Source: Candidatus Pacearchaeota archaeon
GTDB lineage: Archaea; Nanobdellota; Nanobdellia; Pacearchaeales; GW2011-AR1
Length of the DNA: 10,262 bases
NCBI GenBank assembly: GCA_002687255.1
Contig: NYZR01000010.1
Span: 1 to 10,262, forward strand
Reading direction: 5' to 3'
A model generated the notes under the pieces. That model was not told the origin of the DNA and searched no databases. It saw only the letters and a program-made list of their open reading frames with translations. Below, piece by piece: positions 1 to 10,262 of this stretch (within the stretch, counting starts at the first letter, position 1; every line of letters starts with the position of its first letter). The position numbers and the translations under genes were made by a program.

Positions 1-39
1 AAGAGTGATGTGTTGACGGTTGTAGCGACGGCTGCTTAA
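1..39 (+). CDS. possible 3' end of an upstream + strand gene (partial, 12 codons)
   Basis: Frame 1 is open from the window edge to TAA at 37-39 (KSDVLTVVATAA*). Its G/T-ending codons match the other + strand genes, and T-runs follow. It is too short to support further. Confidence 0.2.
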   Translation, partial: KSDVLTVVATAA

Positions 40-71
40 TTTTTTCATCGTGCTTGGAGCGCTCGTTTTTT
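40..71 (+). terminator. two oligo-T runs (T6 at 40-45 and T6 at 66-71), archaeal-style termination signals
   Basis: Archaeal RNAP terminates at oligo-T tracts. Both runs lie between the putative upstream stop (37-39) and the next promoter (122-128). Confidence 0.3.
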
Positions 72-121
72 GATATCGTGTTACAGCGAACACAGGGCGA
101 TGCTACATCTCCTGGGAAAGG

Positions 122-128
122 TATATAA
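122..128 (+). promoter_or_regulatory. TATA box (TATATAA) preceded by purine-rich BRE-like GGAAAGG
   Basis: tatataa at 122-128 lies 29 nt upstream of ATG 151. The same 27-31 nt spacing recurs at five other operon-head genes in this window, which fits leaderless transcripts. Confidence 0.55.
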
Positions 129-150
129 CGGGATCTATCTTGTTGGAATT

Positions 151-1260
151 ATGGGGAGATGTTTGTTTTTTGGTTTGTTTGTATTGGTGTTGTTTGCAGG
201 TTTGGCAAGTGCGGCTTTGGGGATCAGTCCGGCGAAGTTAACTTATGATTTCGTTCCGGGGATGGAGCATGAGATTGAGTATACTGTTATTTCTGATCGG
301 CCAGATCAGGTGGCTTTTGTTTATAGTGAGGGGGCGTTAGGTGAGTTGGTTGGTGTGAGCAGGGAGAAGGTGGTTGGGGAGGAGCAGTTTGTGGCGACTC
401 TGCGATTTCCGCAGACTATGGGGAAGCCTGGAAGGCACAGGATTTATGTGGTGGCTAGTGAACAGAAGGCTGAGGGGATTGAGCCGTTGGGATCTGCCGT
501 GACAGTGCGGGCAGTGATTGAGGTGTTTGTTCCGTATCCTGGACAGTATGTGGATGTTGCTCTGGATGTTTCGAATGGAAATGTTGATGAGACGATTCCT
601 TTGGTTTTGAAGTTGGAGAGTTTGGGGACTGAGAACGTGACTGTTTCTCCGAGAGTTGAGGTGTTTGATCGTGATGGGACGCAGGTCGCTACACGTGGGT
701 TTGATTCGTTCTTGTTGCCTAGTCGGGAGAGGAAGGATGTGCATGCTGAGATGTCGACGATGGGTTGGAAGCCGGGAGAGTTTCTTGCTGTTGGAAAAGC
801 GAGCTTTGCTGGACAGACTAATGATGTGAATAAGACGTTTCTTGTCGGTTCTTTGTTCGTGAATGTGACGAATCATACTGAGAGATTGGTGAGGCAGGAA
901 GGGATTCAGAAGTTTTTGGTAAACGTGGAGAGTCGTTGGAATGGGGCTTTGGATGAGGTGTTTGCCGAGGTGAATCTTTCGAATGAAGAAGGCAGTGTTT
1001 TTGTGAAGACGCCTTCCGTTTCTTTGAGACCCTGGGAATTTGCGGAGCTTGTTGCTTTCGTAGATACTGATGAATTGGATGGGGTGTATCAGAGCGAAAT
1101 TGTGGTGAGGTATGCTGGTGTGAGCACGAGAGTGTTTGGTTTGTTGGAAGTTGGATCTGCAGAGCAGGTTTGGATGTGGGTTCTTGTTCTTGTTGTGGTT
1201 GCTTTGTTCTTGTGGAAGCGTTCGGTTTCGGAGCATGGGAAGCAAGATGAAAAGCGATAG
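151..1260 (+). CDS. secreted, C-terminally membrane-anchored surface protein with multiple Ig/CARDB-like beta-sandwich domains (hypothetical)
   Basis: ORF 70..1260 trimmed to ATG 151, which has the TATA at -29. The N-terminus MGRCLFFGLFVLVLFAGLASA|AL looks like a Sec signal peptide. About 330 aa of beta-rich sequence follow, enough for about 3 beta-sandwich domains. The C-terminal TM VWMWVLVLVVVALFLW is followed by a basic tail, KRSVSEHGKQDEKR. N-glycosylation sequons are present (NVT x2, NKT, NHT, NLS). The stop is TAG. The family cannot be named without an HMM search. Confidence 0.85.
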   Translation: MGRCLFFGLFVLVLFAGLASAALGISPAKLTYDFVPGMEHEIEYTVISDRPDQVAFVYSEGALGELVGVSREKVVGEEQFVATLRFPQTMGKPGRHRIYVVASEQKAEGIEPLGSAVTVRAVIEVFVPYPGQYVDVALDVSNGNVDETIPLVLKLESLGTENVTVSPRVEVFDRDGTQVATRGFDSFLLPSRERKDVHAEMSTMGWKPGEFLAVGKASFAGQTNDVNKTFLVGSLFVNVTNHTERLVRQEGIQKFLVNVESRWNGALDEVFAEVNLSNEEGSVFVKTPSVSLRPWEFAELVAFVDTDELDGVYQSEIVVRYAGVSTRVFGLLEVGSAEQVWMWVLVLVVVALFLWKRSVSEHGKQDEKR

Positions 1261-1666
1261 AGTTTTGTTGCTGGCGGTAGCTGTTTTGGTTTTTGCTGTT
1301 TTGGTTTTTGCTGTTTCTTTGTCTGATTTTTTCGGCTGGGTCGCTGTTGATACAGAAAGGGTTTATGCTAGTGTTAATGTCTCTGATCGTGTGGGTTTTA
1401 ATGTGAATGGCAGCGCTTTGACTTTTGGGAGTATTCTTCCAGGAGGATCTTCTTCGAGATCTGTTATTTTTCAGAATACTTATTCTTTTCCTGTTGAATT
1501 GAGGATTTCTGTGGAAGGAGATATTGCTGGGCTTGTTCAGGTTGGGGATGGGTGGGAGATTCCTGTTGGTGGAGGGTTGGAGATTCCCTTCTCTGTTTAT
1601 GCTGGGCCTGGTGTTCGACAGGGTTTTTCTGACGGATTTGTGGTGTTTCGGATTTTGAGACAATGA
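1235..1666 (+). CDS. small N-terminally anchored single beta-sandwich (PapD/ASH/DUF1573-like pattern) surface protein (hypothetical)
   Basis: ORF 1136..1666 trimmed to ATG 1235; ATG 1247 is an alternative (MKSDRVLLL...). It overlaps the upstream stop (1258-1260) by 14-26 nt, which suggests translational coupling. The TM/signal anchor is LLLAVAVLVFAVLVFAV. About 110 aa follow with an LTFGSILPGGSSSRSVIFQN...PVELRISVEG pattern typical of Ig-like folds. The stop is TGA. Confidence 0.75.
   Translation: MGSKMKSDRVLLLAVAVLVFAVLVFAVSLSDFFGWVAVDTERVYASVNVSDRVGFNVNGSALTFGSILPGGSSSRSVIFQNTYSFPVELRISVEGDIAGLVQVGDGWEIPVGGGLEIPFSVYAGPGVRQGFSDGFVVFRILRQ
1280..1316 (+). repeat. 15-bp perfect tandem duplication (gctgttttggttttt x2 plus 7-nt partial third copy) inside the TM-coding segment
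   Basis: Copies lie at 1280-1294 and 1295-1309, with a partial copy at 1310-1316. The duplication is in frame and encodes AVLVF-AVLVF-AV. Confidence 0.9.
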
Positions 1667-1790
1667 GATTTGAGCTTGCGCAACCTCCTTGCTTTAGCTC
1701 GTGTGCAAGCAAGCACAAATCTCGAGCGTGAACTACCCGGGGGGCGGAGGACGCCCCAGGCTTTAGCCCGGGGTGGTTCACACAATGAGG
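1660..1790. ncRNA. candidate structured RNA or structured intergenic element (class unknown, strand undetermined)
   Basis: A 190-bp gap lies between CDSs. The segment is locally GC-rich and C-containing within an otherwise G+T-rich strand. Nested complementarity: stem 1674-1682/1702-1710 (9 bp, one GU), stem 1728-1738/1771-1781 (11 bp, one GU), enclosed hairpin 1741-1746/1752-1757 (GGGGCG/CGCCCC, loop GAGGA), and a mini-hairpin 1759-1761/1766-1768. The motif GCTTTAGC(T/C)CG occurs twice (1691-1701, 1760-1770). ACAATGAG flanks the element on both sides (1660-1667, 1782-1789). Only short, implausible ORFs cross it on either strand. Confidence 0.4.
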
Positions 1791-1827
1791 TTCTTGGTCT
1801 TGGTGAGATGCTTTTGCGAAGCCAAAG

Positions 1828-1835
1828 ATATTTAA
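1828..1835 (+). promoter_or_regulatory. TATA box (ATATTTAA) with upstream purine-rich CCAAAG
   Basis: It lies 30 nt upstream of ATG 1858, the same geometry as the other operon heads. Confidence 0.5.
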
Positions 1836-1857
1836 GAGTGATCTTCTTGGTGTTGAG

Positions 1858-3303
1858 ATGTTGAAGAGGGGGATGAGGAATGGTTTTCGTGTGGTATTGT
1901 TTTTCGTAATTTTTTTGTCGGTGTTTATGTTGTTGGGTAACGTGTTGTTGTATGCTTCGTATCAGCAGTTAGTTGGTGTTCATGGAAGAGCGACGGAAGG
2001 GAGTATTGGTTTTACTGTTGTTGATAGCACCAGTCCTAATGTGACAATTGTTTTTCCTGAAGCTGTTCAGTATACTTCTAGCACTGTGGATATCAATCTT
2101 AGCTTACATGAGTCTGGCTATTGTGAATATTCTCTTGATGGTGGGGTGACGAATAATACTCTGACGGCAAGAGATGGAAATACTAGTTATACTGGAGATA
2201 CAGGTAGCATAGATGATGCGTTGTATACGTTTCGGGCATATTGTAATGATACTTCTGGGAATCGGAATGATACCGAGTTTCTTGCCTTTTCTGTTTCTAC
2301 TGGCACTTCTAGCGACGCCGCTGCTGGCGGGGGCGGCGGAGGGGGTGGTGGAGGCGGTGGAAGTAGTCCTGCGAAGGAAACTACTTGGGTGGTTGATGTT
2401 GCTCGGTTGAAGGCTTCTGCGAATTTGGGCGAGACTAAGAAAAAGTATTTCCAGATCACAAATAATGGGGTGACTGCCTTGGTTTTCACGCTTCGTCATA
2501 ATGTGGATTCCTATCTTTCTTTTTCCGACGATTCTTTGGAGATTGATCCGAATACTTCAAAGAAGGTGACTGCGACCTTTAAGGCACCTGAGAGAGGAAA
2601 ACCTGATGTCTATACAGGGGAGATTACTGTTTCTACGAAGGGTTCTAAGAAGAAGATCCCAGTTATTTTTGAGGTTAGCTCAGGGAAGGCGCTTATTGAT
2701 ATGAGTGTTTATATTCCTCCTGTGTCTCAGAAATTAGGGGTCGGAGAGGATTTGACATTTGATGTTGAGCTTGATCCTGCTGAGGAAGGCGAACGTGAGG
2801 TGACCCTTTTGTATATGGTAAAGGACTTTTCTGATGTCGTTCATCTTCAGTATGAAGAGGTTGTGATGTTGGATAAGGCGATGGCACACCGGGTTTCTTT
2901 GGATGCAAGTGATCTTCTCGATGGGGAGTATATTCTGGTTGTGGCCGCTACTGATAGTCATGGCACAAGTGTGGATTCCCAGGTGTTTACTGTTGATCTT
3001 GGTGTTGCTCTTTCTGCTTCTTTTGGCATGGATCATTTTTCTTTGTTGTGGTTTGCGTTGGTTGCTCTTATTGCTGTTGCTCTGGGATGGTTCTTGTGGA
3101 TACATCATAGGGGTCATGGGAGGGGTGGTCGGTTTAGGAGGAGGCGCTCTTCAGGGTTTGCGGCGTCTCTAGGTCTTGGTGAGTTACAAGGGAAGTTGAT
3201 GGCTCTAGAGGAAGCGAAAGCTGGAGGGTTCGTGAAGGATTCATCTTATAGGAAAGGGAAGCGATCTCTTTCGTCTAAAATGAAGAAGAGGTTGGGGCGG
3301 TGA
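1858..3303 (+). CDS. bitopic modular surface protein: N-terminal anchor, Cys-containing glycosylated Ig-like domain, Gly12 linker, two Ig-like domains, TM, basic SHOCT-like cytoplasmic tail (hypothetical)
   Basis: 481-aa ORF. The N-terminal TM is FRVVLFFVIFLSVFMLLGNVLLYA. The domain SPNVTIVFPEAVQYTSSTVDINLSLHESGYCEYSLDGG...YTFRAYCNDTSGN resembles the 'TPPxITIxSP...YSLDGG...NDTAGN' Ig-like module common in archaeal adhesin-like proteins, and it carries 6 NxS/T sequons. The G12 linker is at 2326-2361. Two further beta-sandwich-like segments follow. The second TM is FSLLWFALVALIAVALGWFLWI, followed by HHRGHGRGGRFRRRR and LQGKLMALEEAKAGGFVKDSSYRKGKRSL (SHOCT-like L..L..a..G.i....Y...K pattern). 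The stop is TGA. Confidence 0.85.
   Translation: MLKRGMRNGFRVVLFFVIFLSVFMLLGNVLLYASYQQLVGVHGRATEGSIGFTVVDSTSPNVTIVFPEAVQYTSSTVDINLSLHESGYCEYSLDGGVTNNTLTARDGNTSYTGDTGSIDDALYTFRAYCNDTSGNRNDTEFLAFSVSTGTSSDAAAGGGGGGGGGGGGSSPAKETTWVVDVARLKASANLGETKKKYFQITNNGVTALVFTLRHNVDSYLSFSDDSLEIDPNTSKKVTATFKAPERGKPDVYTGEITVSTKGSKKKIPVIFEVSSGKALIDMSVYIPPVSQKLGVGEDLTFDVELDPAEEGEREVTLLYMVKDFSDVVHLQYEEVVMLDKAMAHRVSLDASDLLDGEYILVVAATDSHGTSVDSQVFTVDLGVALSASFGMDHFSLLWFALVALIAVALGWFLWIHHRGHGRGGRFRRRRSSGFAASLGLGELQGKLMALEEAKAGGFVKDSSYRKGKRSLSSKMKKRLGR
2326..2361 (+). repeat. imperfect GGN x12 tract encoding a Gly12 linker
   Basis: ggc ggg ggc ggc gga ggg ggt ggt gga ggc ggt gga. It is in frame within the 1858..3303 CDS, flanked by SSDAAA and SSPAKE. 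Confidence 0.95.
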
Positions 3304-3313
3304 AATACTTGTC

Positions 3314-3318
3314 TTTTT
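3314..3318 (+). terminator. oligo-T (T5) 11 nt after the TGA stop of the 1858..3303 gene
   Basis: tgaaatacttgtcTTTTTcc. Archaeal terminators are simple T-runs. The tract is short, so the call is weak. Confidence 0.3.
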
Positions 3319-3337
3319 CCAAAAAATGCCTTCGTGG

Positions 3338-3509
3338 CACGCCTCTGTTTTGCTCTGTTTGTGGATGTGCATCATGGCGCTTCGTGAGCCCATTTTTTGT
3401 TGCGTCTTTGGATCCGCCACCCCTTTTTCCCCACAGGTTCGCTGTGGCGCATACATCCACTGCTCTTGGTTACTACAGTGCTCTCTCCCCACGCCCTTCT
3501 GTTTTGCTC
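3338..3509 (+). repeat. imperfect direct repeat CACGCC(CT)TCTGTTTTGCTC (3338-3355 and 3490-3509) bracketing a roughly 135-bp non-coding segment
   Basis: The 12-nt core tctgttttgctc is identical at 3344-3355 and 3498-3509. Both copies are preceded by cacgcc, and the second has a 2-nt insertion. Between them, an 8-bp perfect long-range stem pairs 3361-3368 (gtggatgt) with 3453-3460 (acatccac), and a hairpin forms at 3431-3436/3442-3447 (CCACAG gttcg CTGTGG). Confidence 0.5.
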
Positions 3510-3518
3510 GCCACAATG

Positions 3519-3526
3519 TTTATAAA
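3519..3526 (+). promoter_or_regulatory. TATA box (TTTATAAA)
   Basis: This is the best TATA match in the 3304-3570 spacer. It lies 52 nt upstream of the GTG 3571 start, so this gene would carry a short 5' UTR, unlike the leaderless genes. Alternatively it drives something else. Confidence 0.4.
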
Positions 3527-3570
3527 GAACTTTTCGTTGGGTAGGATAAGCACAACATGGGGTTGCGAGC

Positions 3571-4098
3571 GTGGCAAGTAGTGCTGGCTCACGACGGTTG
3601 GTTGCCTGGTTCAAGAAGAGTGTTCGGGAAGGGTATCCGATTAACAGGTGTGTGGAGGTCTTGCTGGACAATGGCTATGATCCTGTGATGGTGAGGGAGG
3701 CTGTAGAGCTTTATCACGGAGTGAGACCCAGGAAGGAGAAGGCTGAGAAAAAGAAAACAGGGAAATCAAAAAAAATGCCGGCGAAAAAATCTACGGGGAA
3801 GAAGGGTTCTTCTATGTCTGGGACTTCTGCATTGTCTGGAGCCATTCAAGATCTTGAGAGTGAGTTGATGAAGCTAGGGAAGAAGAAGCATGAAATTGAG
3901 GATGCTGTAGCTTCGGTCTCTGCTGAGGTGGCGTATTCACAGGCTCGGGAGAGAGAGTTCCAGCAGAAGATTTCTGCGTTGATTGCTGAGGAAGGGAGTT
4001 TGAAGAATCGTGAGAAGAATTTGCAGGCTCGGTTGGATAGAGTTGGGGATAAGATGGCGAAGGTTGCGAAGATTCGTGCTGAGATGGGTGATGTTTAG
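3571..4098 (+). CDS. hypothetical protein: small N-terminal helical domain, Lys-rich linker, C-terminal coiled coil
   Basis: 175-aa ORF with a GTG start; the start is uncertain. The N-terminal LVAWFKKSVREGYPINRCVEVLLDNGYDPVMVREAVELY matches the '...GYs...I...L...Gw....I..A' helical module seen at the N-termini of many small archaeal proteins. The linker is RPRKEKAEKKKTGKSKKMPAKKSTGKKGSS. A heptad-like E/K/L/A-rich region runs from about residue 95 to 175. The stop is TAG. Confidence 0.7.
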   Translation: MASSAGSRRLVAWFKKSVREGYPINRCVEVLLDNGYDPVMVREAVELYHGVRPRKEKAEKKKTGKSKKMPAKKSTGKKGSSMSGTSALSGAIQDLESELMKLGKKKHEIEDAVASVSAEVAYSQAREREFQQKISALIAEEGSLKNREKNLQARLDRVGDKMAKVAKIRAEMGDV

Positions 4099-4137
4099 TA
4101 TAGAAATGTTTAAGTAGGGTTTCTTGGTGAGGTGTGT

Positions 4138-4452
4138 ATGTTTGGACTGATTCAAGAAAGATATCAGAGTCTTTCTGAGAAGTATACAGCTCTTGATCAT
4201 CAAAGAAGTTCTCAGAGGGTGACTGTTGGTGGGAAGGAGCCACTTACTCTTTCTTATGATCGTTTGAATGGATTTCTCTTCGGTGAGAATGATGTTCCTG
4301 CGTCTGATGATCGAATTGCTCAGGTGAGATTGTATGGCGATGAGCATGGGTTTTTCCCCGAAGTTGTTGATGAAGGGGGTGTTGATAGAACTTCATTAGC
4401 ACTGCAGCAGGTTTTGCGAGTGGTTCAGTTTCACAGGGATTTACCGTCTTAG
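4138..4452 (+). CDS. hypothetical small protein (104 aa)
   Basis: ORF 4132..4452 trimmed to ATG 4138. A Shine-Dalgarno-like GGTGAGGTG at 4126-4134 is complementary to the archaeal 16S 3' end; its GGTGA core lies 7 nt upstream of the ATG. Codon usage is G/T-ending like the other + genes. The segment LTLSYDRLNGFLF...DDRIAQVRLYGDEHGF faintly resembles DUF2283-type small beta proteins; this is unverified. The stop is TAG. Confidence 0.6.
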   Translation: MFGLIQERYQSLSEKYTALDHQRSSQRVTVGGKEPLTLSYDRLNGFLFGENDVPASDDRIAQVRLYGDEHGFFPEVVDEGGVDRTSLALQQVLRVVQFHRDLPS

Positions 4453-4459
4453 CTTCTAT

Positions 4460-4678
4460 TTATTCTTGGCAGCCTCTGTTTATCAATTCGGTTCGTGCTG
4501 CTGATGCTTCTAGGCCTGAGGGGAGTGAATGGTCTGTTAGGTGGACAAGGGTTCTCGCTAATAGATTGAGTTGTTGTGCGGCTTCGTATTTTTGGATGGT
4601 GGCTCGGAGCTCTTTTGGAGATCCTCTTCGTGCTTGTGCTTCACGTTGCTGTCCTTCTTGGTATTGTTTGAGAAACAT
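4460..4678 (-). CDS. possible small helical protein (72 aa), doubtful
   Basis: The ATG at 4678 starts 1 nt after the prf1 TAA (TAACATG). The ORF exactly fills the 227-bp gap between the convergent genes, and the stop is TAA at 4460-4462. Against it: the minus strand is stop-codon-poor because of the composition skew, so ORFs of this size arise by chance. There is no SD, and the Q/E/A/R-rich sequence has no recognisable motif. Confidence 0.3.
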   Translation of the reverse strand: MFLKQYQEGQQREAQARRGSPKELRATIQKYEAAQQLNLLARTLVHLTDHSLPSGLEASAARTELINRGCQE

Positions 4679-4679
4679 G

Positions 4680-5786
4680 TTATTCAATCGGAAATCTCAA
4701 CAAGGCTCCGATGCCTGTTTTTGTGAGGTTGATGAACTGCTGGCCGTCTTGGTGTTCGTCCGAGATTAAAACTACGGAGGCTCCGATGTTTTCTGCCATT
4801 TTGGAGAGTTCACTTGTTTTTGCTTTGCTGAGCTTTTTGTCTAAGAAGAGTTTGTCGACGGCGCCCCGTTCTAGGGCGACCTTGACTTTTTCCTCTCCGT
4901 AAGGTGCCATGTTCTTGTGTTTTCCAAGTGTGTCGAAAAACTGTTCTAGGATCTTTTTCTCTTTGATGAGTTCTTGTTCGGCGATGTCTTCTTGGGATTC
5001 TTCGACTAGGAGTTCTAGTCCGTGTTCGTCCACATAGCCAATGTCCTTGAGGGCTATGACTTTTTCTTTGAGCTTGGTTACGAGCTGCCCTTCTTCTAGA
5101 AATTCTTCTTTCGTCGGAATCGGCCCACCGATAAGGATCCCTTTTAGTTTGTCTAGATCGAAGAAGTGATCCTTCATGGATTCTGCTACTCTTCTGAAGA
5201 AATCTTTTGCGAGGCCTTCTGTTATTCTATGGAATCTTTGGCTGGACTGGCCGCCTGCACGAGTTTTTCCTGGAACTCCTGAAGTGAGCGATTGGAGCAT
5301 CTTGATATCCTTGCCTTCAAGTAGTCCGATGCTTGCTTCTTGTCGGTCTATGGCTAGGAGTCCGAAGACTTCTTCCACTTCGAGCATGGCCTTCAGAGGT
5401 TCTAATAGAAATGTTTGATCGCAACGATACATTCTGACCTTGAGAGCTTTCGGTGGTTCGATGGCCCAGATCTCAATATTTTGTTGGCCTTCTTTTTCTG
5501 AAGTGTTGCCTGCATAAATGGCTAGTCCGTTTTCTGGGGTTTTCTTGTAGGTCTTGAGTTCTCTGATTATTGTGTCCAATCCATCTGTGACTGCCGAACG
5601 GGTTTGTTTGGATTTGATGTTCGTTGCTGTCGATCTTTCACCTTCTAATTGTTTTTGAACGAGGTTGATGTTCTGTCCCGTTGGTATGAGGACGGAGACG
5701 AGTTGGGTGTGGCGGCCTTTGATGGCATCTAGGGTTTCAATGAGTTCTTCAAGTTCTCTTGCTTGTTGGGGGGTGAGGTCTGACAT
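4680..5786 (-). CDS. prf1: peptide chain release factor aRF1 (archaeal/eukaryotic class I release factor)
   Basis: The 368-aa ORF carries the diagnostic motifs: TATNIKSKQTR (NIKS stop-codon recognition loop), MYRCDQTF (YxCxxxF) and TRAGGQSSQRF (GGQ peptidyl-tRNA hydrolysis motif). This family is restricted to archaea and eukaryotes. The stop is TAA. Confidence 0.95.
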   Translation of the reverse strand: MSDLTPQQARELEELIETLDAIKGRHTQLVSVLIPTGQNINLVQKQLEGERSTATNIKSKQTRSAVTDGLDTIIRELKTYKKTPENGLAIYAGNTSEKEGQQNIEIWAIEPPKALKVRMYRCDQTFLLEPLKAMLEVEEVFGLLAIDRQEASIGLLEGKDIKMLQSLTSGVPGKTRAGGQSSQRFHRITEGLAKDFFRRVAESMKDHFFDLDKLKGILIGGPIPTKEEFLEEGQLVTKLKEKVIALKDIGYVDEHGLELLVEESQEDIAEQELIKEKKILEQFFDTLGKHKNMAPYGEEKVKVALERGAVDKLFLDKKLSKAKTSELSKMAENIGASVVLISDEHQDGQQFINLTKTGIGALLRFPIE

Positions 5787-5808
5787 GGTAGTTAGATGAG
5801 TGTGTGGT

Positions 5809-5817
5809 TTAAAAAAT
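5809..5817 (-). promoter_or_regulatory. TATA box (TTTTTTAAA on the minus strand) for prf1; the T6 run may also terminate valS
   Basis: It lies 24-31 nt upstream of ATG 5786 and 7 nt downstream of the valS stop (5824-5826). Confidence 0.45.
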
Positions 5818-5823
5818 GTGGTG

Positions 5824-8199
5824 TCACACGAGATCTACTTTAAGTGCACCTTCCTTGATTTCTTCTGCAGAGGTGACAGCTTTGAGATCTTCGAGAAGGG
5901 GTTTGAGGAGGGTTTGTGTTTCTTCCGGTAGTGTTAGATAGATTTCTGCCTTCATAGATACTTTTGCTTCTGACTTTGTTTGTCTGGCTTTGGCGATGAT
6001 CTCGAGGAGAGTGTTCCAGGCTTCCTGGTCTTTCTTAGAGGTTTTTAGTTTGAGCGGTGTGGGCCAGCTGCTTGTGTGAATGGAAGTTTCCTTTTCCTGC
6101 TTCTTGAAATGAGTTTGGTAGATTTCTTCGGTGATGAACGGTGTTATCGGTGCCATCATCTTCGTTATTGCTAAGAGGGCTTGATAGAGAGTGTAGGAAG
6201 CAGATGCTTTTTCTGTTGCTGTGCCGTTGTAGACCCTGTATTTGACTAGTTCTAGGTAGTTATCAGCGAAGGTGTGCCAGAAGAATGCGTCGACCAACAT
6301 TTTTGCTTTTGATAGTTCGTATGATTCGAATGCGTCTGTTGCTGATTTTGTTAGGTTGTTGAGTTGAGTGAGGAATAACCTGTCCGTTTCGTGTAGCGTT
6401 GGTTGCGTCTTTTTTGGTTTTATGTTCATGAATACAAAATTAGCTGCGTTTATTATCTTGGTTACGAATTTCTTTCCGGCTATGAGTTCTTTCTCTGGGA
6501 ATGGTAATGCGTCTCCTGCTTTTACAGAGGCTGAGAGGTATCTCAAGGCATCCGCTCCATAGTCTTCTATTACGTCCTGAGGAGATACCCCGTTGCCTCT
6601 TGATTTTGACATCTTGTGTCCGTCTTTTCCGAGTATCCATCCGTTGATATAGAGTTCATTCCACGGGTTTCTATTTTCGTGTAGTTGTGATTTCACTATG
6701 GTGTTGAAATCCCAGAACGTGATGATATCTTGGCCGTTTCTTCTTATGCTCATGGGTTGATTGGTGATTTTTTTGTATGCTGGTGTGTCTTTTAGCAGAT
6801 CTTTGGTGATGGTTGGCGTGAGTGAAGAGGTCGCCCAGGTGTTCATCACATCTTTTTCTGGTATAAATTCTGTTGAGTTACATTTTGGGCATTTCTTTAT
6901 TGGTGGTTTATCTTCTATGGGGTCGATGGGTAGTTGCTTTTCATCTGCGAGTATCGTCTCGTCACAACTTTTGCAATACCAGACGGGGAATGGAATCCCG
7001 AATGCTATCTGTCTTGAAATGCACCAGTCCCATTTTAGACCTTTGACCCAGTTTTCGTATCTGTTTCTCATATGGTCTGGGTGCCATTTGATTTCCCTTC
7101 CCCACTTTAGTAATTTTTCTTTTAGATCGAGATACTTGATGCACCATTGCTTCTTTTCTATGAATTCAATTTCTGTGCTACATCTTTCACACACATTCAC
7201 TGGGTGGGTGATCTTCTTCTGTGATTTCAGCGCTCCAGCTTTTTTCAGGTCTTGGATTACTTGTTCTCTCGCTTCTTTTATCTTCAGTCCTTTGTATTTT
7301 CCTGCGAGTCCTGTCATCGTTCCGTCGGGAGCTATGGCCATTTTGATGGGGAGTTTGTGTTCTCTTTGCCATTCCATATCTGTTTGGTCTCCGAAGGTGC
7401 AGCACATTACCACTCCGGTTCCTTTCTCAGGGTCTGCCTTGGGGTCTGGTAGGATGGGAACTTCTATGTCGAATAAAGGGGTTTTCGCCTTCTTCCCTTT
7501 CAGTGGTTTGAATCTTTTGTCATCAGGATGGTAGAAGATGGCTACAATTGCTGGAAGGAGTTCTGGTCTTGTTGTTGAGATTATAAGGTCTTTGTTGTCT
7601 ACCTTGAACACGATATCGCTGAATTGGCTGTGGATGTCTTTATCGACTAGTTCTACTTGTGCGATTGTCGTTCGGCAGGTTGGGCACCAGAGGGCCGGGG
7701 CGTCGATACGGTATTCTCTTCCTAATTTGTAGAGATCTATGAAACTTTGCTGTGAGACCCTTCTCGATCGTTCATCTATGGTTGAGTAGAAGATGTCCCA
7801 GTCGGCGGAGATTCCTAGTCTTTTTGAGTCTGCTAGGAATTCTGGTATGTATTCTTCTTCTATTGTTTTCAGGCAGAGTTCTATGAATTCTTCTCTGGAC
7901 ATGGATTTTGAGTCGACGTTTTTCTCTTTTTCAACTAGTCTTAGGGTTGGCAGGCCGTTGTTGTCTGTTCCGAATGGATTGAGAACTTCGAAGCCATTCA
8001 TTCTTTTGAATCTGGCTATGAAGTCTTGCTGGGCGTCTCCGAAGGCGTGTCCCATGTGGAGTTTTCCTGAGATGGTTGGCGGCGGGGTGTCTAGGGAGTA
8101 GATTTTCTTCTTGGTTTTTGTGTCGAACTTGTAGATCTTTTTGTCTTCCCAGTATTTTTGCCATTTTCTTTCTATTTCTTGGATGTTTGTTTTGGGCAT
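5824..8199 (-). CDS. valS: valine--tRNA ligase (archaeal-type class Ia aminoacyl-tRNA synthetase)
   Basis: 791-aa ORF. TPPPTISGKLHMGHAF is the ValRS-type 'PPP..(S/T)G.LH.GH' HIGH motif, and GHKMSKSRGNGV is KMSKS. The CP1 editing-domain signatures are TTRPELLPAIVAIFYHPDD and GTGVVMCCTFGDQTDMEW. DWCISRQIAFGIPFPVWYC is present, along with four CxxC pairs. The N-terminus IERKWQKYWEDKKIYKF is typical of archaeal ValRS. The class Ia call is near certain. Val specificity rests on motif resemblance rather than IleRS or LeuRS features. Confidence 0.88.
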   Translation of the reverse strand: MPKTNIQEIERKWQKYWEDKKIYKFDTKTKKKIYSLDTPPPTISGKLHMGHAFGDAQQDFIARFKRMNGFEVLNPFGTDNNGLPTLRLVEKEKNVDSKSMSREEFIELCLKTIEEEYIPEFLADSKRLGISADWDIFYSTIDERSRRVSQQSFIDLYKLGREYRIDAPALWCPTCRTTIAQVELVDKDIHSQFSDIVFKVDNKDLIISTTRPELLPAIVAIFYHPDDKRFKPLKGKKAKTPLFDIEVPILPDPKADPEKGTGVVMCCTFGDQTDMEWQREHKLPIKMAIAPDGTMTGLAGKYKGLKIKEAREQVIQDLKKAGALKSQKKITHPVNVCERCSTEIEFIEKKQWCIKYLDLKEKLLKWGREIKWHPDHMRNRYENWVKGLKWDWCISRQIAFGIPFPVWYCKSCDETILADEKQLPIDPIEDKPPIKKCPKCNSTEFIPEKDVMNTWATSSLTPTITKDLLKDTPAYKKITNQPMSIRRNGQDIITFWDFNTIVKSQLHENRNPWNELYINGWILGKDGHKMSKSRGNGVSPQDVIEDYGADALRYLSASVKAGDALPFPEKELIAGKKFVTKIINAANFVFMNIKPKKTQPTLHETDRLFLTQLNNLTKSATDAFESYELSKAKMLVDAFFWHTFADNYLELVKYRVYNGTATEKASASYTLYQALLAITKMMAPITPFITEEIYQTHFKKQEKETSIHTSSWPTPLKLKTSKKDQEAWNTLLEIIAKARQTKSEAKVSMKAEIYLTLPEETQTLLKPLLEDLKAVTSAEEIKEGALKVDLV

Positions 8200-8219
8200 G
8201 CTCTTTTTTAGGGAAGAGG

Positions 8220-8227
8220 GTTTAAAG
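8220..8227 (-). promoter_or_regulatory. TATA box (CTTTAAAC on the minus strand) for valS
   Basis: It lies in the 38-bp spacer between the methyltransferase stop (8238) and the valS ATG (8199), 28 nt from the ATG. Confidence 0.45.
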
Positions 8228-8237
8228 GGTTTTTGGG

Positions 8238-8924
8238 CTATCTCTTTTGAAGGATGAGCCCGTATTCATTGATTATCAGATAACGAGCTTTTTCTAGGAT
8301 CATGGGTTCTGCTGCTTGTTGAAAGTGTTTGCTTGCCGCTTTTAGAATTTCTCTCATTTGGAAGATCTCTGTTTTTTCATGAAAGTGTTTGAGATCTTGC
8401 ATTAAAATGGGGTGGTGTGCTTCTACCCCCTCACGTGTTGATTCTGGAGTGTATTCAAAATCAAGTATAATGAGGTTCCCTTTTGGTTTAATTCTTGTTA
8501 CTAGATCTTTGAGAACGGCTTCTAATTCTTCAGGATCTCTTCTTTTGTCGAGGGCTTCGTGGAGCGAGAAGCTGCAGAAGATAGTGTCTAGGTTTTGGAA
8601 TTGAGGCGGGAGGTCTTGGAGTGGTTTTTGGTAGACGTGGTAGGTGTTTGTGTTTCCTTGTTGTTTGAGCTTTTTTGCTAGGGATTTTGATTGTCGGAAG
8701 AGCGCTGTGTTAGGTTCTGCTCCGAGGAGCGTGCAGTGGTTTCTCTTTTCTGCGATGGCCTTGACATCTATTCCTGGGCCTGGGCCCACCACCCCGATGG
8801 TGGTTTGGTCTTGGAGACCGTTTTTTATGGCCCAAGTGAAGAGGTTTTCTTTTGTTTGGTAGTGGAGGTGCTCTTCGTAGACTTGGGCTATTTTTGTGTA
8901 GTTTTGATCGTTTCTTTGTGTCAT
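8238..8924 (-). CDS. class I SAM-dependent methyltransferase (substrate unknown)
   Basis: ORF 8238..9122 trimmed to ATG 8924 (MTQRNDQNY...). A strong SD, AAGGAGG (+ strand cctcctt, 8931-8937), lies 6 nt upstream. Rossmann MTase motifs are present: motif I IGVVGPGPGID, post-I LLGAEPN, motif II DTIFCSFSLHE and motif III IKPKGNLIILDF. The start overlaps the upstream stop as ATGA. Confidence 0.85.
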   Translation of the reverse strand: MTQRNDQNYTKIAQVYEEHLHYQTKENLFTWAIKNGLQDQTTIGVVGPGPGIDVKAIAEKRNHCTLLGAEPNTALFRQSKSLAKKLKQQGNTNTYHVYQKPLQDLPPQFQNLDTIFCSFSLHEALDKRRDPEELEAVLKDLVTRIKPKGNLIILDFEYTPESTREGVEAHHPILMQDLKHFHEKTEIFQMREILKAASKHFQQAAEPMILEKARYLIINEYGLILQKR

Positions 8925-9145
8925 TTTATACCTCCTTTGGCGAATTTGATTGCCCACATGCAGAAGATAAAGGTGTTGACTATGACGAATGGAAGATCTG
9001 TTATGAGGATTGCGTGGAGGATGAGGAACGCTGTTCCTAAGAGGTCTAGAGGGATGAATCGATTTGGCTTTTTGGTGTTGAGAAAGAGGTATGCTATCAT
9101 AACGAGTGCAAGTCCTATCCACCCCATTGCGTCTTGGATTGTCAT
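8921..9145 (-). CDS. 74-aa three-TM membrane miniprotein (resembles bacterial CBU_0592-type / SemiSWEET-sized 3-helix proteins)
   Basis: Three hydrophobic helices: WIGLALVMIAYLFL, FIPLDLLGTAFLILHAILI and LPFVIVNTFIFCMWAIKFA. The ATG at 9145 lies 1 nt after the upstream TAG, and its TGA overlaps the downstream ATG (ATGA). Family resemblance is from memory of the pattern W.G......AY.....................N..G......................N..W only. Confidence 0.75.
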   Translation of the reverse strand: MTIQDAMGWIGLALVMIAYLFLNTKKPNRFIPLDLLGTAFLILHAILITDLPFVIVNTFIFCMWAIKFAKGGIK

Positions 9146-9146
9146 G

Positions 9147-9164
9147 CTAGAATTTTAATTCTAG
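9147..9164 (-). other. perfect inverted repeat CTAGAATT-AA-AATTCTAG formed by the last five codons plus the stop of the beta-barrel gene
   Basis: On the minus strand, CTA GAA TTA AAA TTC TAG (LELKF*). As RNA it can form a 7-bp stem with a UAAA loop that ends 2 nt before the next start codon (9145). Confidence 0.6.
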
Positions 9165-9800
9165 GCCTATGATGGGGGTGATTCCTTCTCGGATTTTCTT
9201 GAAGCTTGGTCTGGTGAAACTTTTGCTTCTGACAAAAGCAGAAACTCTGTCAGTGAGTTTGAGCTTGACTTTTGGTTCGAGCATCAGGACTTTTGGATCT
9301 ATGTTGTAGTCTGCAGTGAGATTTGCTCTGAGTCTTGGGGTGAGTTGCTGTGAGGTGAAGAATGTTGCTTGTTGTCCGTGCTCTCCTGATGTCTCTAAGG
9401 GAAGGTATTTGAGATAGGTGAAGTTGTTTTTTCCTAAATTTGGTGTGTATGTTATTCCGAGTCTAATGGTGTCTTCTAAGAAGGTGGCTCCGTTGTATTC
9501 TGCTGTTAGTGCAAGAGGAACTTGTTTTGTTGGTTGGATGTTGATCCTTCCTTCTGCGTAGACGCTTTGCATGTTTGTCGGTTCTTCTTTACTGGCGTTG
9601 AGGTCGATGAAGCCATATGTGCTTATTTTATCGTTGAGTTTGCTGCCTCCTTCAATTCTTGCTGTGGAATGTTCTTTTTTTATGTTGTAGCCTGGCTGGA
9701 ATGTGAACCAGTTGTCGCTTGCTTGGGCTTTTCCTGGCAAGAACGGCAGGGCGAGGAAAGCTAGCTTTGCTAGTATTCCAGGTTTTCTTTTTTTGTTCAT
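9147..9800 (-). CDS. secreted beta-barrel-like protein resembling small bacterial outer-membrane channels (Tsx/OmpK- or KdgM-like pattern); hypothetical
   Basis: 217 aa. The signal peptide is MNKKRKPGILAKLAFLALPFLPGKAQA|SD (basic n-region, hydrophobic core, AxA site). About 12 segments of alternating hydrophobic/polar residues occur at beta-hairpin spacing: WFTFQPGYNI, STARIEGGSKL, ISTYGFIDLNA, SVYAEGRINIQ, LALTAEYNGA, DTIRLGITYTP, FTYLKYLPLE, QQATFFTSQQL, LRANLTADYNI, LMLEPKVKLKL, VSAFVRSKSFT and ITPIIGLELKF. The terminal residue is Phe, as in the OMP beta-signal. An SD-like GGGAG lies 8 nt upstream, and the start overlaps the upstream stop (ATGA). That it is a CDS is well supported; the fold and family are inferred. 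Confidence 0.85.
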   Translation of the reverse strand: MNKKRKPGILAKLAFLALPFLPGKAQASDNWFTFQPGYNIKKEHSTARIEGGSKLNDKISTYGFIDLNASKEEPTNMQSVYAEGRINIQPTKQVPLALTAEYNGATFLEDTIRLGITYTPNLGKNNFTYLKYLPLETSGEHGQQATFFTSQQLTPRLRANLTADYNIDPKVLMLEPKVKLKLTDRVSAFVRSKSFTRPSFKKIREGITPIIGLELKF

Positions 9801-10048
9801 CTTCTTAGCTCCCTTGAGACTTTTGAGATCAGATCTTCGTTTCTCGTGATCTTATGGGCTCTGAAGTGGGTTCTCCGATGTTTATCTTCCTCTAGTTTTC
9901 TGTAGACTGTTGAGACAATTTGTCTTTCTCCTAATCTCATCTCCTGAGCCTCTTTTTCTTTAACGAAGATGTCTTTTCTGATTTCTCGATATTTCCTCTC
10001 TGGATTTCCTGCATCTGTTTCTCTATGGTCTATTGCTACGATTGTCAT
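9797..10048 (-). CDS. small highly charged protein (83 aa), possibly ribbon-helix-helix-like DNA binder; hypothetical
   Basis: ORF 9797..10180 trimmed to ATG 10048 (MTIVAIDHRETDAG...), which lies 21-28 nt downstream of TATA 10069-10076. The segment KDIFVKEKEAQEMRLGERQIVSTVYRKLEE could be strand-helix-turn-helix as in CopG/Arc-type proteins; this is a weak call. The tail is basic. The TGA overlaps the next ATG (ATGA). Confidence 0.6.
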   Translation of the reverse strand: MTIVAIDHRETDAGNPERKYREIRKDIFVKEKEAQEMRLGERQIVSTVYRKLEEDKHRRTHFRAHKITRNEDLISKVSRELRR

Positions 10049-10068
10049 ACTCGCTTTCGTTTTATTGG

Positions 10069-10076
10069 TTATATAA
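10069..10076 (-). promoter_or_regulatory. TATA box (TTATATAA, nearly palindromic) for the minus-strand operon
   Basis: It lies 28 nt from ATG 10048, the same spacing as the other leaderless heads. Confidence 0.55.
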
Positions 10077-10084
10077 GAAAATAG

Positions 10085-10103
10085 TGTCCTCTTCAGGAGG
10101 ACA
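10085..10103. promoter_or_regulatory. inverted repeat TGTCCTC-ttcag-GAGGACA, candidate operator
   Basis: It has 7-bp perfect arms (10085-10091 and 10097-10103) with a 5-bp spacer. It sits between the two divergent TATA boxes, 9 bp from each (10069-10076 and 10113-10120). Confidence 0.5.
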
Positions 10104-10112
10104 ATAGAAAGG

Positions 10113-10120
10113 TTTACATA
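10113..10120 (+). promoter_or_regulatory. TATA box (TTTACATA) preceded by AGAAAGG (BRE-like, same as at 115-121)
   Basis: It lies 29 nt upstream of ATG 10142, matching the leaderless spacing elsewhere in the window. Confidence 0.45.
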
Positions 10121-10141
10121 ATGCGGTTTGTTGAAAAAGGG

Positions 10142-10262
10142 ATGGATGAGAAAGTGTTTGAGGATGTGGGGCTGACGCATAATGAGGTGTTGGTTTGGAA
10201 GGCTCTTTTGAAACTTGGATCTTCGACAGCTGGGCCATTGACTCGGGAAAGTGGATTACATC
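10142..10262 (+). CDS. TrmB/MarR-like winged-helix transcriptional regulator, N-terminal fragment (runs off window)
   Basis: This gene is not in the supplied ORF track because it is open-ended. The frame is open from ATG 10121 (MRFVEKG...) and ATG 10142 (MDEKVFEDVGLTHNEVLVWKALLKLGSSTAGPLTRESGLH) to the window end. The pattern GL(T/S).nE..V..aLl.lG..ta..l...sG is the TrmB-family N-terminal wHTH signature. TATA spacing favours the 10142 start. Confidence 0.65.
   Translation, partial: MDEKVFEDVGLTHNEVLVWKALLKLGSSTAGPLTRESGLH

Follow-up and report, generated by a model that had tools for sequence, protein, structure and literature searches.

The stretch of DNA analysed here (the window) comprises 10,262 nucleotides of a contig from a Candidatus Pacearchaeota archaeon and carries, on its minus strand, a gene for a predicted 12-stranded beta-barrel of the outer membrane protein (OMP) type (9147..9800; ATG start, 217 aa, stop codon 9147-9149). 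Codons 1-27 (9720..9800, minus strand) encode a predicted Sec-type signal peptide, MNKKRKPGILAKLAFLALPFLPGKAQA, whose cleavage would fall ahead of S28. In a rule-based reading it consists of a basic KKRK n-region, a 13-residue h-region (mean Kyte-Doolittle 2.4) and an A-Q-A site in front of the serine, which agrees with the exported product and the AQA/SD cleavage site proposed in an earlier note on this DNA. The last strand is encoded by codons 209-217 (P-I-I-G-L-E-L-K-F; 9150..9176, minus strand), and the C-terminus of the protein, ...TPIIGLELKF, has the beta-signal-like form G-x-x-hydrophobic/aromatic-x-F with a terminal Phe.

The operon opens with a highly charged ORF of 83 aa (9797..10048, minus strand), whose stop overlaps the ATG of the barrel gene (ATGA). 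No homologs of this ORF were found, and it may be lineage-specific or not expressed, since it is absent from the other cassettes, loci that carry other family members. A 127-aa version of it starting at 10180 was set aside as unlikely because it would overlap the promoter and start of the TrmB-like regulator gene. On the other side, an ORF for a small membrane protein of 74 aa (8921..9145, minus strand) starts with an ATG 1 nt past the stop codon of the barrel gene; it has a weak, sub-threshold NCBIfam match (E=0.006) to the CBU_0592 membrane protein family and no similarity to the small ORFs at other cassettes. It overlaps through another ATGA with the gene of a class I SAM-dependent methyltransferase (8238..8924, minus strand; 228 aa from ATG 8924; Pfam Methyltransf_11/12/25), which is preceded by a GGAGGT motif. 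The barrel gene is translationally coupled to its neighbours through its 1-nt and 4-nt junctions. A methyltransferase gene lies 3' of the barrel in 6 of 10 cassettes; as these enzymes are heterogeneous (UbiE/CpaM-like, DVU_1556-like and RsmC/HemK-like, that of the window being weakly related to one of them), a functional link was set aside and no mechanism was drawn from the methyltransferase. The window holds no tRNA and no Rfam elements. Its other surface proteins carry C-terminal membrane anchors, which fit an ordinary single-membrane archaeal envelope.

The divergent regulator and its candidate operator

Facing the operon on the plus strand is the 5' end of a gene for a TrmB-like winged-helix regulator (10142..10262, beginning MDEKVFEDVGLTHNEVLVWKALLKLGSSTAGPL; alternative ATG at 10121), which is cut by the window end. 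A palindrome, TGTCCTC-TTCAG-GAGGACA (10085..10103), lies between two divergent TATA-like boxes. One of these, TTATATAA (10069..10076, minus strand), is 21-28 nt upstream of ATG 10048, a leaderless-type spacing, and would serve the operon, while the other, TTTACATAA (10113..10121, plus strand), is 21-29 nt upstream of ATG 10142 and would serve the regulator gene. An A/T box equivalent to that of the operon is found at the same relative position in the other TrmB-type cassettes.

Over 37-39 residues, the regulator fragment is 33-49% identical to the TrmB genes of loci L001, L086, L089, L090, L092 and L095, whose barrel-adjacent regulators match PF01978. All nine distinct archaeal cassettes (9/9) have a divergent wHTH regulator, which is TrmB-like in seven and a Lrp/AsnC tandem in two. 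L097 and L098 are the sole close DNA pair among the loci and are identical. An exact, GC-containing palindrome occurs at the same relative position in 6 of the 7 TrmB-type intergenic regions, the copy of L095a being imperfect, and the palindromes co-vary with the TrmB subgroup: TACCAGTACTGGTA in L089/L090, AACTCTC-N8-GAGAGTT in L086/L092 and TTGCTCT-N10-AGAGCAA in L001. The palindrome at 10085-10103 is thus a candidate operator of the TrmB-like regulator. When the 255-aa protein of L089 was searched for the sugar-binding effector domain of TrmB, it matched at residues 3-83 only, and its NCBIfam matches to TrmB and TrmBL1 were far below the cut-offs; because the match is confined to the DNA-binding domain, no ligand of the regulator can be inferred. 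The divergent regulator and its candidate operator, together with the bacterial and CPR relatives described below, are additions to the earlier note.

The barrel family and its predicted fold

Word-indexed homolog searches returned two proteins with a single sequence and five with a profile, and the family surfaced in exhaustive HMMER searches, which gave 114 clusters (50% identity) at E<=1e-3 and 70 at E<=1e-10. Three further loci came from a narrow metagenome scan, and at least one family member belongs to an NCBI MAG. Carriers of the family include the MAG GCA_043805315.1 (P0009), the MAG of HLD34026.1, the bin of a 165-kb contig in JGI 3300072015 and, on the CPR branch, GCA_016933365.1. 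Nearly all members are ~190-230 aa long, a comparable N-terminal hydrophobic segment is present in nearly all those listed, and the twelve predicted strands, with 114 clusters of matching length, are far beyond chance. The family was previously unmodelled, with neither a Pfam nor an NCBIfam model. The window protein has no match in Pfam, in NCBIfam or, by phmmer and by profile, among PDB sequences; no known OMP family was matched at the sequence level by it or by other members in these three resources, and 9 of 10 selected members have no Pfam match even at E<=5. The sub-threshold Pfam matches that do occur among members are mostly to OMP families, as with P0077, a distant CPR member that touches PF13505 and Porin_4. 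Viral contigs scanned with patterns of close relatives contained no family member, and neither did 80 DPANN ValRS loci. GTDB genomes yielded no relative of the close trio with two very specific peptide patterns, a search uninformative on absence.

Across the family, residues E50, Y62, E101, R113, G115, E175 and G212 are conserved, the last in 59 of 62 members, and position 215 is rich in Y/F. The BAM beta-signal consensus is the yardstick for the C-terminal motif. The terminal Phe, which had been noted for the window protein as beta-signal-like, recurs in 65 of 103 full-length members (63%) with the consensus G-[VIL]-K-[YF]-x-F, and many of the members not ending in F have F, W or L within their last three residues.

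A first AF2 model from a three-sequence alignment was useless (pLDDT 31.8), so a deeper alignment was needed; with 62 sequences, AF2 predicts a 12-strand meander with pLDDT 90.3 and pTM 0.82. Strands 1-6 span residues 31-39, 44-54, 59-68, 79-88, 96-105 and 108-118, and strands 7-12 residues 126-136, 144-152, 157-166, 171-181, 186-196 and 208-216, joined by loops that are all short (2-11 residues); the signal-peptide stretch is helical and of low pLDDT. According to the model, the even-numbered antiparallel meander would close into a barrel. A Foldseek search of the PDB with the model gave 69 matches at E<=1e-3, the best 50 of which are almost all bacterial outer membrane barrels, with a few designed or engineered proteins, and the closest superpositions are to KdgM, NanC, VhGalP, PcoB and Tsx. 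Matches in BFVD are to phage OMP-like barrels. Structure prediction, which the earlier note had named as a check, thus returned a confident 12-strand barrel with outer membrane barrels as its PDB matches.

Support independent of AF2 comes from the family alignment, in which every strand shows a two-residue alternation, in keeping with the roughly 12 amphipathic strands counted at first in the single sequence. Hydrophobic residues make up 70% of the outward face and charged ones 5%, with an entropy of 2.55 bits, and the polar face is 31% charged, with an entropy of 1.99 bits, and bears the near-invariant residues. The conserved charges of the lumen face are basic at R48, R85, R113, R193 and K214 and acidic at E50, D66, E83, E101, D164 and E175. 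Several strands frequently carry Tyr or Phe at or close to an end (38, 88, 102, 118, 165, 180, 215), so that the aromatic girdle read from the single sequence, and with it a hydrophobic belt, reappears at the family level. Among the top 60 MI pairs, 24 fall in adjacent strands (40% vs 9.6% expected), although the pairs are silent on the pairing of strands 1 and 12; of the 29 long-range pairs, 20 join two polar-face residues, vs ~27% expected. Because the outer face is hydrophobic and variable and the conserved charges lie on the other face, the barrel is read as a membrane protein and not as a soluble one. By computation, the product is predicted to be a Sec-exported, ~190-residue, 12-stranded transmembrane beta-barrel of the bacterial outer membrane type with a KdgM/NanC-like fold.

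Archaeal residence and bacterial relatives

The genes for aRF1 (eRF1 domains 1-3) and for a class I ValRS of DPANN type lie on the same strand as the barrel gene, and the best matches of the ValRS are to Woesearchaeota/Pacearchaeota MAGs at 62-67% identity, so the flanking genes are archaeal, as had been stated. The codon usage of the barrel gene correlates with that of valS (RSCU r=0.80; comparable values are 0.73 for aRF1 and 0.78 for the methyltransferase), and its GC matches that of its neighbours. Of the original codon argument, the agreement with valS stands, whereas the A/C-ending bias itself is a strand-wide compositional skew, since the plus-strand genes of the window mirror it with a G/T-ending bias. 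An independent assembly encodes a protein that is 97% identical. Other members adjoin genes for L7Ae, Nre, a Cdc48-type AAA protein or PAC2, and P0009, P0116 and P0089 carry the NCBI labels Nanoarchaeota/Nanoarchaeia. The archaeal-context members are 21-46% identical to the window protein and have therefore been long resident under purifying selection, and the same regulator-barrel layout recurs next to archaeal markers in the nine distinct archaeal cassettes, whose samples and assemblers differ.

The barrel gene is accordingly native to DPANN archaea of the Nanoarchaeota/Woesearchaeota type, and bacterial members also exist; the host archaeon is small and probably symbiotic. The earlier claim of an outer-membrane-style 12-strand barrel native to an archaeal operon is upheld by the agreement of fold, belt, C-terminal Phe and the nine cassettes. 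An artefact, that is, a bacterial gene mis-assembled or mis-binned into an archaeal contig, or a very recent non-functional transfer, might be suspected because genuine bacterial members exist and one distant member sits on a CPR contig. This suspicion is opposed by the archaeal genes on both sides, the 1-nt and 4-nt junctions, the fit of codon usage and GC, the shared layout of the nine cassettes and the low identity among archaeal-context members; it is largely refuted and extremely improbable, in accordance with the view that the gene is neither a fresh transfer nor part of a chimera.

The bacterial members P0036 and P0054 share with the window protein its length, the signal peptide, the conserved lumen residues and the ...G-V-K-W/Y-x-F end, and P0036 reaches E=2.8e-29 against the window-centred profile. 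They live in diderm bacteria, and a relative of P0036 is labelled Opitutaceae (Verrucomicrobiota); all bacterial members are annotated as "hypothetical protein". The loci of both are rich in sulfatases and include TonB receptors and ECF sigma/FecR; an AP_endonuc_2 gene (a sugar-isomerase-like TIM barrel) lies 13-16 bp upstream of each barrel gene. Unlike the archaeal cassettes, these loci have neither TrmB nor a methyltransferase, and the insertion FDYGFGDW, common to the bacterial members, is missing from the window protein. The neighbour-joining tree is star-like and gives no direction of transfer. An old bacterial origin of the family is likely because Opitutaceae-type and distant CPR relatives exist.

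Proposed function and comparison with known systems

To our knowledge, archaea have no BAM/Omp85. The explanation that we favour, to which we give a probability of roughly 0.6 as a whole, is that the family is bacterial in origin and, after an old transfer, was kept and diversified in DPANN archaea, and that the exported mature protein, unaided by a BAM machine, would fold into a lipid bilayer beyond the cytoplasmic membrane and act there as a small-solute channel with a conserved lumen lining of R48, E50, D66, E83, R85, E101, R113, D164, E175 and R193. The TrmB-like regulator would bind the palindrome at 10085-10103 and switch the 83-aa ORF, the barrel, the 74-aa membrane protein ORF and the methyltransferase. 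The destination of the barrel can be ranked speculatively: a partner or host cell membrane, or the contact zone, comes first as a tentative choice, the archaeon's own second outer lipid layer follows as a less probable one, and the outer face of its own cytoplasmic membrane is less probable still, the rest being something else. It is conceivable, if doubtful, that ultra-small episymbionts among DPANN archaea and in a distant CPR branch, which themselves lack an outer membrane, secrete a self-inserting, bacterial-type 12-strand barrel into the partner membrane or a layer of the contact zone for metabolite uptake.

An alternative, which we consider as doubtful as such a secreted barrel, places the protein in an outer membrane of its own producer, a diderm DPANN archaeon, as a resident, substrate-specific porin assembled by a non-BAM or very divergent machine that reads the C-terminal Phe. 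Double membranes have been reported in a few archaea, including the ultra-small ARMAN and the DPANN-affiliated Altiarchaeum, and such archaea interact closely with other organisms (PMC4243693, PMC8871954). A terminal or near-terminal Phe and the motif G-x-x-aromatic-x-F are kept in all archaeal-context members examined, and the dedicated regulators and the two paralogous cassettes found on one contig resemble specific bacterial porins. However, the ~90 kb of cassette flanks, a small share of the genomes, contain no Omp85/POTRA, LptD, Lol or further OMP-like gene, and C-terminal transmembrane anchors such as those of the window's other surface proteins are a feature of monoderm archaea.

The barrel could also sit in a membrane without being a channel. 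Its conserved paired lumen charges and very short loops could indicate a barrel plugged by a salt-bridge network, which would serve as an anchor, receptor, adhesin base or enzyme and has been likened to OmpX, OmpA, PagP, OMPLA and LpxR. The lumen face carries the near-invariant E50, E101, R113 and E175 as well as R48, D66, E83, R85, D164 and R193, long-range MI links lumen positions, every loop has only 2-11 residues, and the fold matches include OMPLA and the intimin/invasin beta-domains (TM 0.50-0.54). We nevertheless think this unlikely: structurally, the 12-strand channels KdgM, NanC and VhGalP match best, neither an extra adhesin or passenger domain nor a catalytic motif was recognised, and the bacterial relatives lie in polysaccharide-utilisation-type loci beside a sugar-isomerase-like gene, as would suit an uptake channel. 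Much less probable again is a closed barrel secreted in soluble form, which would bind a ligand or lipid in its interior and act outside any membrane; a soluble closed barrel had been the third option of the earlier note. It would suit archaea without known OMP insertases and a few polar outward positions such as D110, K131 and Q151, but the outward face is hydrophobic and variable with the conserved charges opposite, the reverse of a hydrophobic core, and natural soluble barrels account for none of the best 50 of the 69 PDB matches.

Beta-barrels that span a membrane and end in a C-terminal Phe signal are regarded as a hallmark of the outer membranes of bacteria and organelles, and of the BAM/SAM machinery. 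Their occurrence as a conserved, regulated family in DPANN archaea means one of three things, namely a second membrane built by some of these archaea with bacterial-style proteins, barrel assembly in vivo without BAM or a tool aimed at a partner membrane, each of which would change views of DPANN cell envelopes and host dependence. If the favoured destination, a partner membrane, is true, archaea would for the first time be seen to use a beta-barrel "porin", one that works without BAM as a regulated uptake conduit. The small (~190 aa), expressible protein and its regulator-operator pair offer a test system, and for bacteria the family is a new, unannotated OMP family of Opitutaceae-type polysaccharide-utilisation loci.

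Among known systems, the pore protein of Ignicoccus is a small alpha-helical oligomer and not a beta-barrel. Its outer-membrane pore complex (Burghardt et al., 2007), as presented in a review of double-membraned archaea (PMC4243693), is a precedent for a pore in an archaeal outer membrane, and porins and beta-barrel proteins go unmentioned in the main text of that review. In the PopA porin-like superfamily, which has a different, oligomeric architecture, an Altiarchaeales match is described as a possible distal relative only (PMC12228718); it is a precedent for a bacterial-type porin-like barrel in a DPANN-affiliated lineage. As far as tested, the Ignicoccus pore and PopA are unrelated to the present family.

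The only Pfam models touched by several members are Phage_OMP (PF24653), a cyanophage OMP-like barrel matched by 6 of 62 members (best E 8.4e-4), and OMP_b-brl (PF13505), matched by 2 of 62 (best E 1.2e-3), in both cases below the curated threshold. The window protein and nine selected members, core archaeal and bacterial ones included, have no PF24653 match at E<=5, and the suggested search with PF13505 gave no match for the window protein. Tsx (PDB 1tlw) is likewise a 12-strand outer membrane barrel, with a fold TM of 0.55/0.49, lower than that of KdgM, but it is larger, with crystallised chains of 248-251 residues, and has long loops. A sequence kinship with Tsx/OmpK, suggested by an echo in the mature N-terminus, was dropped for lack of a profile match (PF03502: no match of the window protein at E<=1, and 1 of 62 members at E=0.011), and likeness of fold alone remains.

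The closest known systems are the KdgM/NanC porins (PF06178; PDB 4pr7, 4fqe, 2wjr, 8xua), which, like the window protein, have 12 antiparallel strands, ~200 residues, short loops, a charged lumen and no plug domain, and the mini-porin size class originally assigned to the ~190-residue mature barrel is therefore sound. Foldseek aligns the model to KdgM and NanC over ~190-210 columns. The best superposition is with KdgM 4pr7 (TM 0.58 by query and 0.70 by KdgM, rmsd 4.0 A, 191 columns), and NanC 2wjr gives TM 0.58/0.62. The likeness is one of fold only, as a profile check with PF06178 found no match of the window protein at E<=1 and none among 62 members at E<=0.1. The lumen of the family has conserved acidic and basic residues, whereas NanC and KdgM have basic tracks, and the hosts here, unlike those of KdgM/NanC, are archaea without a demonstrated outer membrane. 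KdgM/NanC porins are under dedicated substrate-responsive regulators, KdgR and NanR, and the expression of the archaeal barrel would be conditional in the same manner, in parallel to the substrate-specific porins of bacteria that are switched by regulators of their own.

A new family of predicted secreted barrel proteins

The minus-strand ORF at 9147-9800 of the window starts with ATG and encodes a protein of 217 residues, whose N-terminus, MNKKRKPGILAKLAFLALPFLPGKAQA|SD, contains all three regions of a predicted Sec signal peptide, as read from the sequence, and whose C-terminal end is ...IIGLELKF; both features were found as the earlier note had described them. Pfam, NCBIfam and PDB sequence searches with this protein gave no match, and a word-indexed search returned no more than two relatives, one 97% identical and from a different assembly, the other 46% identical. 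When a small alignment of the word-indexed relatives was used to query 1.84 billion cluster representatives exhaustively with HMMER, 114 clusters passed E<=1e-3, of which 70 also passed E<=1e-10 and 34 passed E<=1e-30; nearly all are 190-230 residues long. In a 62-sequence alignment, E50, Y62, E101, R113, G115, E175 and G212 (window protein numbering) are near-invariant and the tail G-x-K-x-x-F is conserved. Phe is the last residue in 65 of the 103 full-length members, and the C-terminal consensus is G-[VIL]-K-[YF]-x-F, which we take to be the core of the bacterial beta-signal.

A Pfam scan of the 62 members produced sub-threshold matches only, most of them to outer-membrane barrel families: Phage_OMP in six members, OMP_b-brl (PF13505) in two, and Porin_4, Tsx, PorP/SprF, Autotransporter and OmpG in one each. 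Of the profiles named in the earlier note, PF13505 is touched, always below threshold, and PF06178 (KdgM) is absent from the matches of all 62 members. The echo of Tsx that the note had seen at the N-terminus lacks support, since PF03502 was matched just once, at E=0.011. At E<=5, Pfam gave nothing for nine of ten selected members, bacterial ones included, the exception being P0077, a member from CPR bacteria, with OMP_b-brl and Porin_4 below threshold. No account of the family, or of beta-barrel OMPs in Nanoarchaeota or Woesearchaeota, was found in the literature searched; the family is new and unmodelled, of a known structural kind, and in an unexpected host.

Archaeal setting and divergent regulator

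The barrel gene belongs to a tightly coupled minus-strand operon, in which the stop of an 83-residue ORF overlaps the barrel ATG, a 74-residue membrane ORF has its ATG 1 nt from the barrel stop codon, and a 228-residue SAM methyltransferase, preceded by a GGAGGT motif, has an ATG that overlaps the TGA of the membrane ORF. The class I ValRS ORF (5824-8199, by Pfam) starts 38 nt beyond the methyltransferase stop; TTTAAA stands about 27 nt upstream of its ATG, inside this gap (8200-8237), and ValRS may thus be transcribed from a leaderless-type promoter of its own and not be a member of the barrel operon. The archaeal neighbourhood proposed earlier is borne out by an ORF at 4680-5786 with all three eRF1 domains in Pfam, and by the closest relatives of ValRS among 185,579 species genomes, which are Woesearchaeota, Pacearchaeota and Nanoarchaeota MAGs at 62-67% identity. 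The barrel gene matches its neighbours in GC (0.43) and, as had also been noted, shares its codon usage with valS (RSCU r=0.80). Elsewhere, one family member lies on a 165-kb contig with PAC2 and a class I (IleRS-like) synthetase, another adjoins Nre, a Cdc48-type AAA protein, AlaRS and L7Ae, and further members occur on contigs of MAGs labelled Nanoarchaeota or Nanoarchaeia. The gene is native to archaea and no artefact.

Each of the nine distinct archaeal cassettes for which upstream sequence is available has a divergent winged-helix regulator beside the barrel operon. In seven (the window and loci L001, L086, L089, L090, L092 and L095a) it is TrmB-like, about 240-255 residues long and 28-60% identical among loci, with the window's truncated copy aligning at 33-49%; in two (L095b and L097/L098) it is an Lrp/AsnC tandem regulator of 335-337 residues. 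An exact GC-containing palindrome lies between two TATA-like boxes in six of the seven TrmB-type intergenic regions, the L095a copy being imperfect, and its sequence co-varies with the TrmB subgroup: TGTCCTC-N5-GAGGACA in the window (10085-10103), TTGCTCT-N10-AGAGCAA in L001, AACTCTC-N8-GAGAGTT in L086/L092, and TACCAGTACTGGTA in L089/L090, with a near copy in L095a. The window's boxes are at 10069-10076 for the operon, 21-28 nt upstream of the ATG at 10048, and at 10113-10121 for the regulator, 21-29 nt upstream of an ATG at 10142 that gives an N-terminus resembling those of the orthologs. As the TrmB/TrmBL1 models match the regulator only in its DNA-binding domain, its conservation would imply conditional expression of the barrel, and not a particular ligand.

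In six of ten cassettes the barrel is followed by a methyltransferase; these enzymes are heterogeneous, and no weight is placed on the link. The 10.6-kb contig L095 carries two paralogous barrel-methyltransferase cassettes (3-2475 and 4382-6839), one with a TrmB-like and the other with an Lrp/AsnC tandem regulator. Member P0031 (L093, 10001-10672, on a 409-kb contig of GCA_038121585.1, archaeal or bacterial, GC 0.39) is without adjacent TrmB; its neighbours are a gene for an OmdA-like protein of 81 residues on one side and one for Polyketide_cyc2/AHSA1 on the other. Among 123 ORFs of at least 120 residues around the cassettes, a crude OMP filter picked only family members and one antisense ORF, and no Omp85-type family was found in the cassette flanks.

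On the plus strand of the window, three surface-protein-like ORFs (70-1260, 1136-1666 and 1858-3303) begin with a hydrophobic segment and give weak matches to Ig-like domains; the two large ones end in a transmembrane anchor and basic tail, and the 481-residue product contains a run of 12 Gly. They are typical of a single-membrane archaeal envelope. A 175-residue ORF (3571-4098, plus strand) has a middle part that is basic and of low complexity, followed by a C-terminal coiled-coil, with weak coiled-coil Pfam matches only. Strong strand asymmetry, independent of gene orientation, extends over positions 1-10262: plus-strand GC skew is about +0.25 (windows +0.02 to +0.46) and AT skew about -0.30, and minus-strand genes are rich in A/C at third codon positions, plus-strand genes in G/T. 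This GC skew is in the top five of 101 sequences (the window and 100 loci), and the AT skew is not approached by any of the loci listed.

Relatives outside the archaea

The loci of members P0036 (E=2.8e-29) and P0054 are bacterial and high in GC; they hold many sulfatase genes along with a TonB-dependent receptor, ECF sigma/FecR and two-component genes. For P0036, 25 relatives were found (52-78% identity), each unnamed or called "hypothetical" and one with the label Opitutaceae. At L094 9001-10657 and L100 9046-10675, the barrel gene of this Opitutaceae-type subfamily lies 13-16 bp downstream of a gene for AP_endonuc_2, a xylose-isomerase-like TIM barrel, an arrangement that, in sulfatase-rich loci, suggests a sugar-related uptake operon. 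A distant branch, at E about 1e-8, includes one member from CPR and one labelled Nanoarchaeota. The former, P0077 (E=8e-9; L099, 153-773), is on a Wolfebacteria contig, beside a set of type IV pilus genes and a bacterial LeuRS; CPR bacteria have been described as monoderm (PMC8871954). The weakest matches are from Omnitrophota. The neighbour-joining tree is star-like, gives no direction of transfer and places the Opitutaceae-type pair among members of archaeal context. We infer a bacterial origin of the family because this fold and the C-terminal signal are bacterial hallmarks.

Fold, membrane and function

With three sequences, AlphaFold2 reached a pLDDT of 31.8; with the 62-sequence alignment, it gave a pLDDT of 90.3 and pTM of 0.82 (178 residues at pLDDT >=90) for a model of exactly twelve strands in up-and-down order, with one short helix in the last loop. 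Foldseek found 69 PDB matches at E<=1e-3; almost every one of the best 50 is an outer-membrane barrel from bacteria, a few being transmembrane barrels that were designed or engineered, and the matches in a viral structure library are phage OMP-like barrels. All twelve strands alternate with period two in the alignment. One register is 70% hydrophobic, 5% charged and variable in identity (mean entropy 2.55 bits), with Tyr/Phe frequent at the ends of several strands or close to them; the other is 31% charged and better conserved (1.99 bits), and holds R48, E50, Y62, D66, E83, R85, E101, R113, G115, D164, E175, R193 and G212. Read from the alignment, the two registers match a lipid-facing exterior and a polar lumen under constraint. 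The reverse would be seen in a soluble barrel with a hydrophobic core, an option of the earlier note that is disfavoured. Mutual information, which is independent of AlphaFold2, agrees with the membrane barrel: 24 of the 60 strongest MI-APC pairs are in sequence-adjacent strands (40% vs 9.6% expected), and among 29 long-range strand-strand pairs, 20 connect polar-face residues with each other, where about 27% would be expected. The pairing of strands 1 and 12 that would close the barrel is a prediction of the model. On entirely computational evidence the note's main reading is upheld, and the identity of the protein as a 12-strand transmembrane barrel of bacterial type, native to DPANN archaea and under regulation there, is well supported.

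We infer a channel from the charged lumen, from the structural matches and from the polysaccharide-utilisation setting in which the bacterial relatives lie; a plugged barrel, acting as an anchor or enzyme, is a serious rival. A pore directed at a partner cell stays a candidate because branches of the family occur in both DPANN and CPR, two episymbiont groups without a known outer membrane. With its conserved regulatory partner, the family offers a tangible way to study the DPANN envelope and the assembly of barrels independently of BAM. Double membranes have been reported in a few archaea, ARMAN and Altiarchaeum among them (PMC4243693, PMC8871954), and a possible porin-like relative in Altiarchaeales, of another superfamily, is mentioned in passing (PMC12228718). 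Among known structures, the best superpositions on the model include the 12-stranded KdgM (TM 0.58 on the query and 0.70 on the named structure, rmsd 4.0 A), as well as VhGalP, PcoB, OMPLA and the intimin/invasin beta-domains; the 12-stranded NanC, at TM 0.58/0.62, and Tsx, at 0.55/0.49, are also among them.
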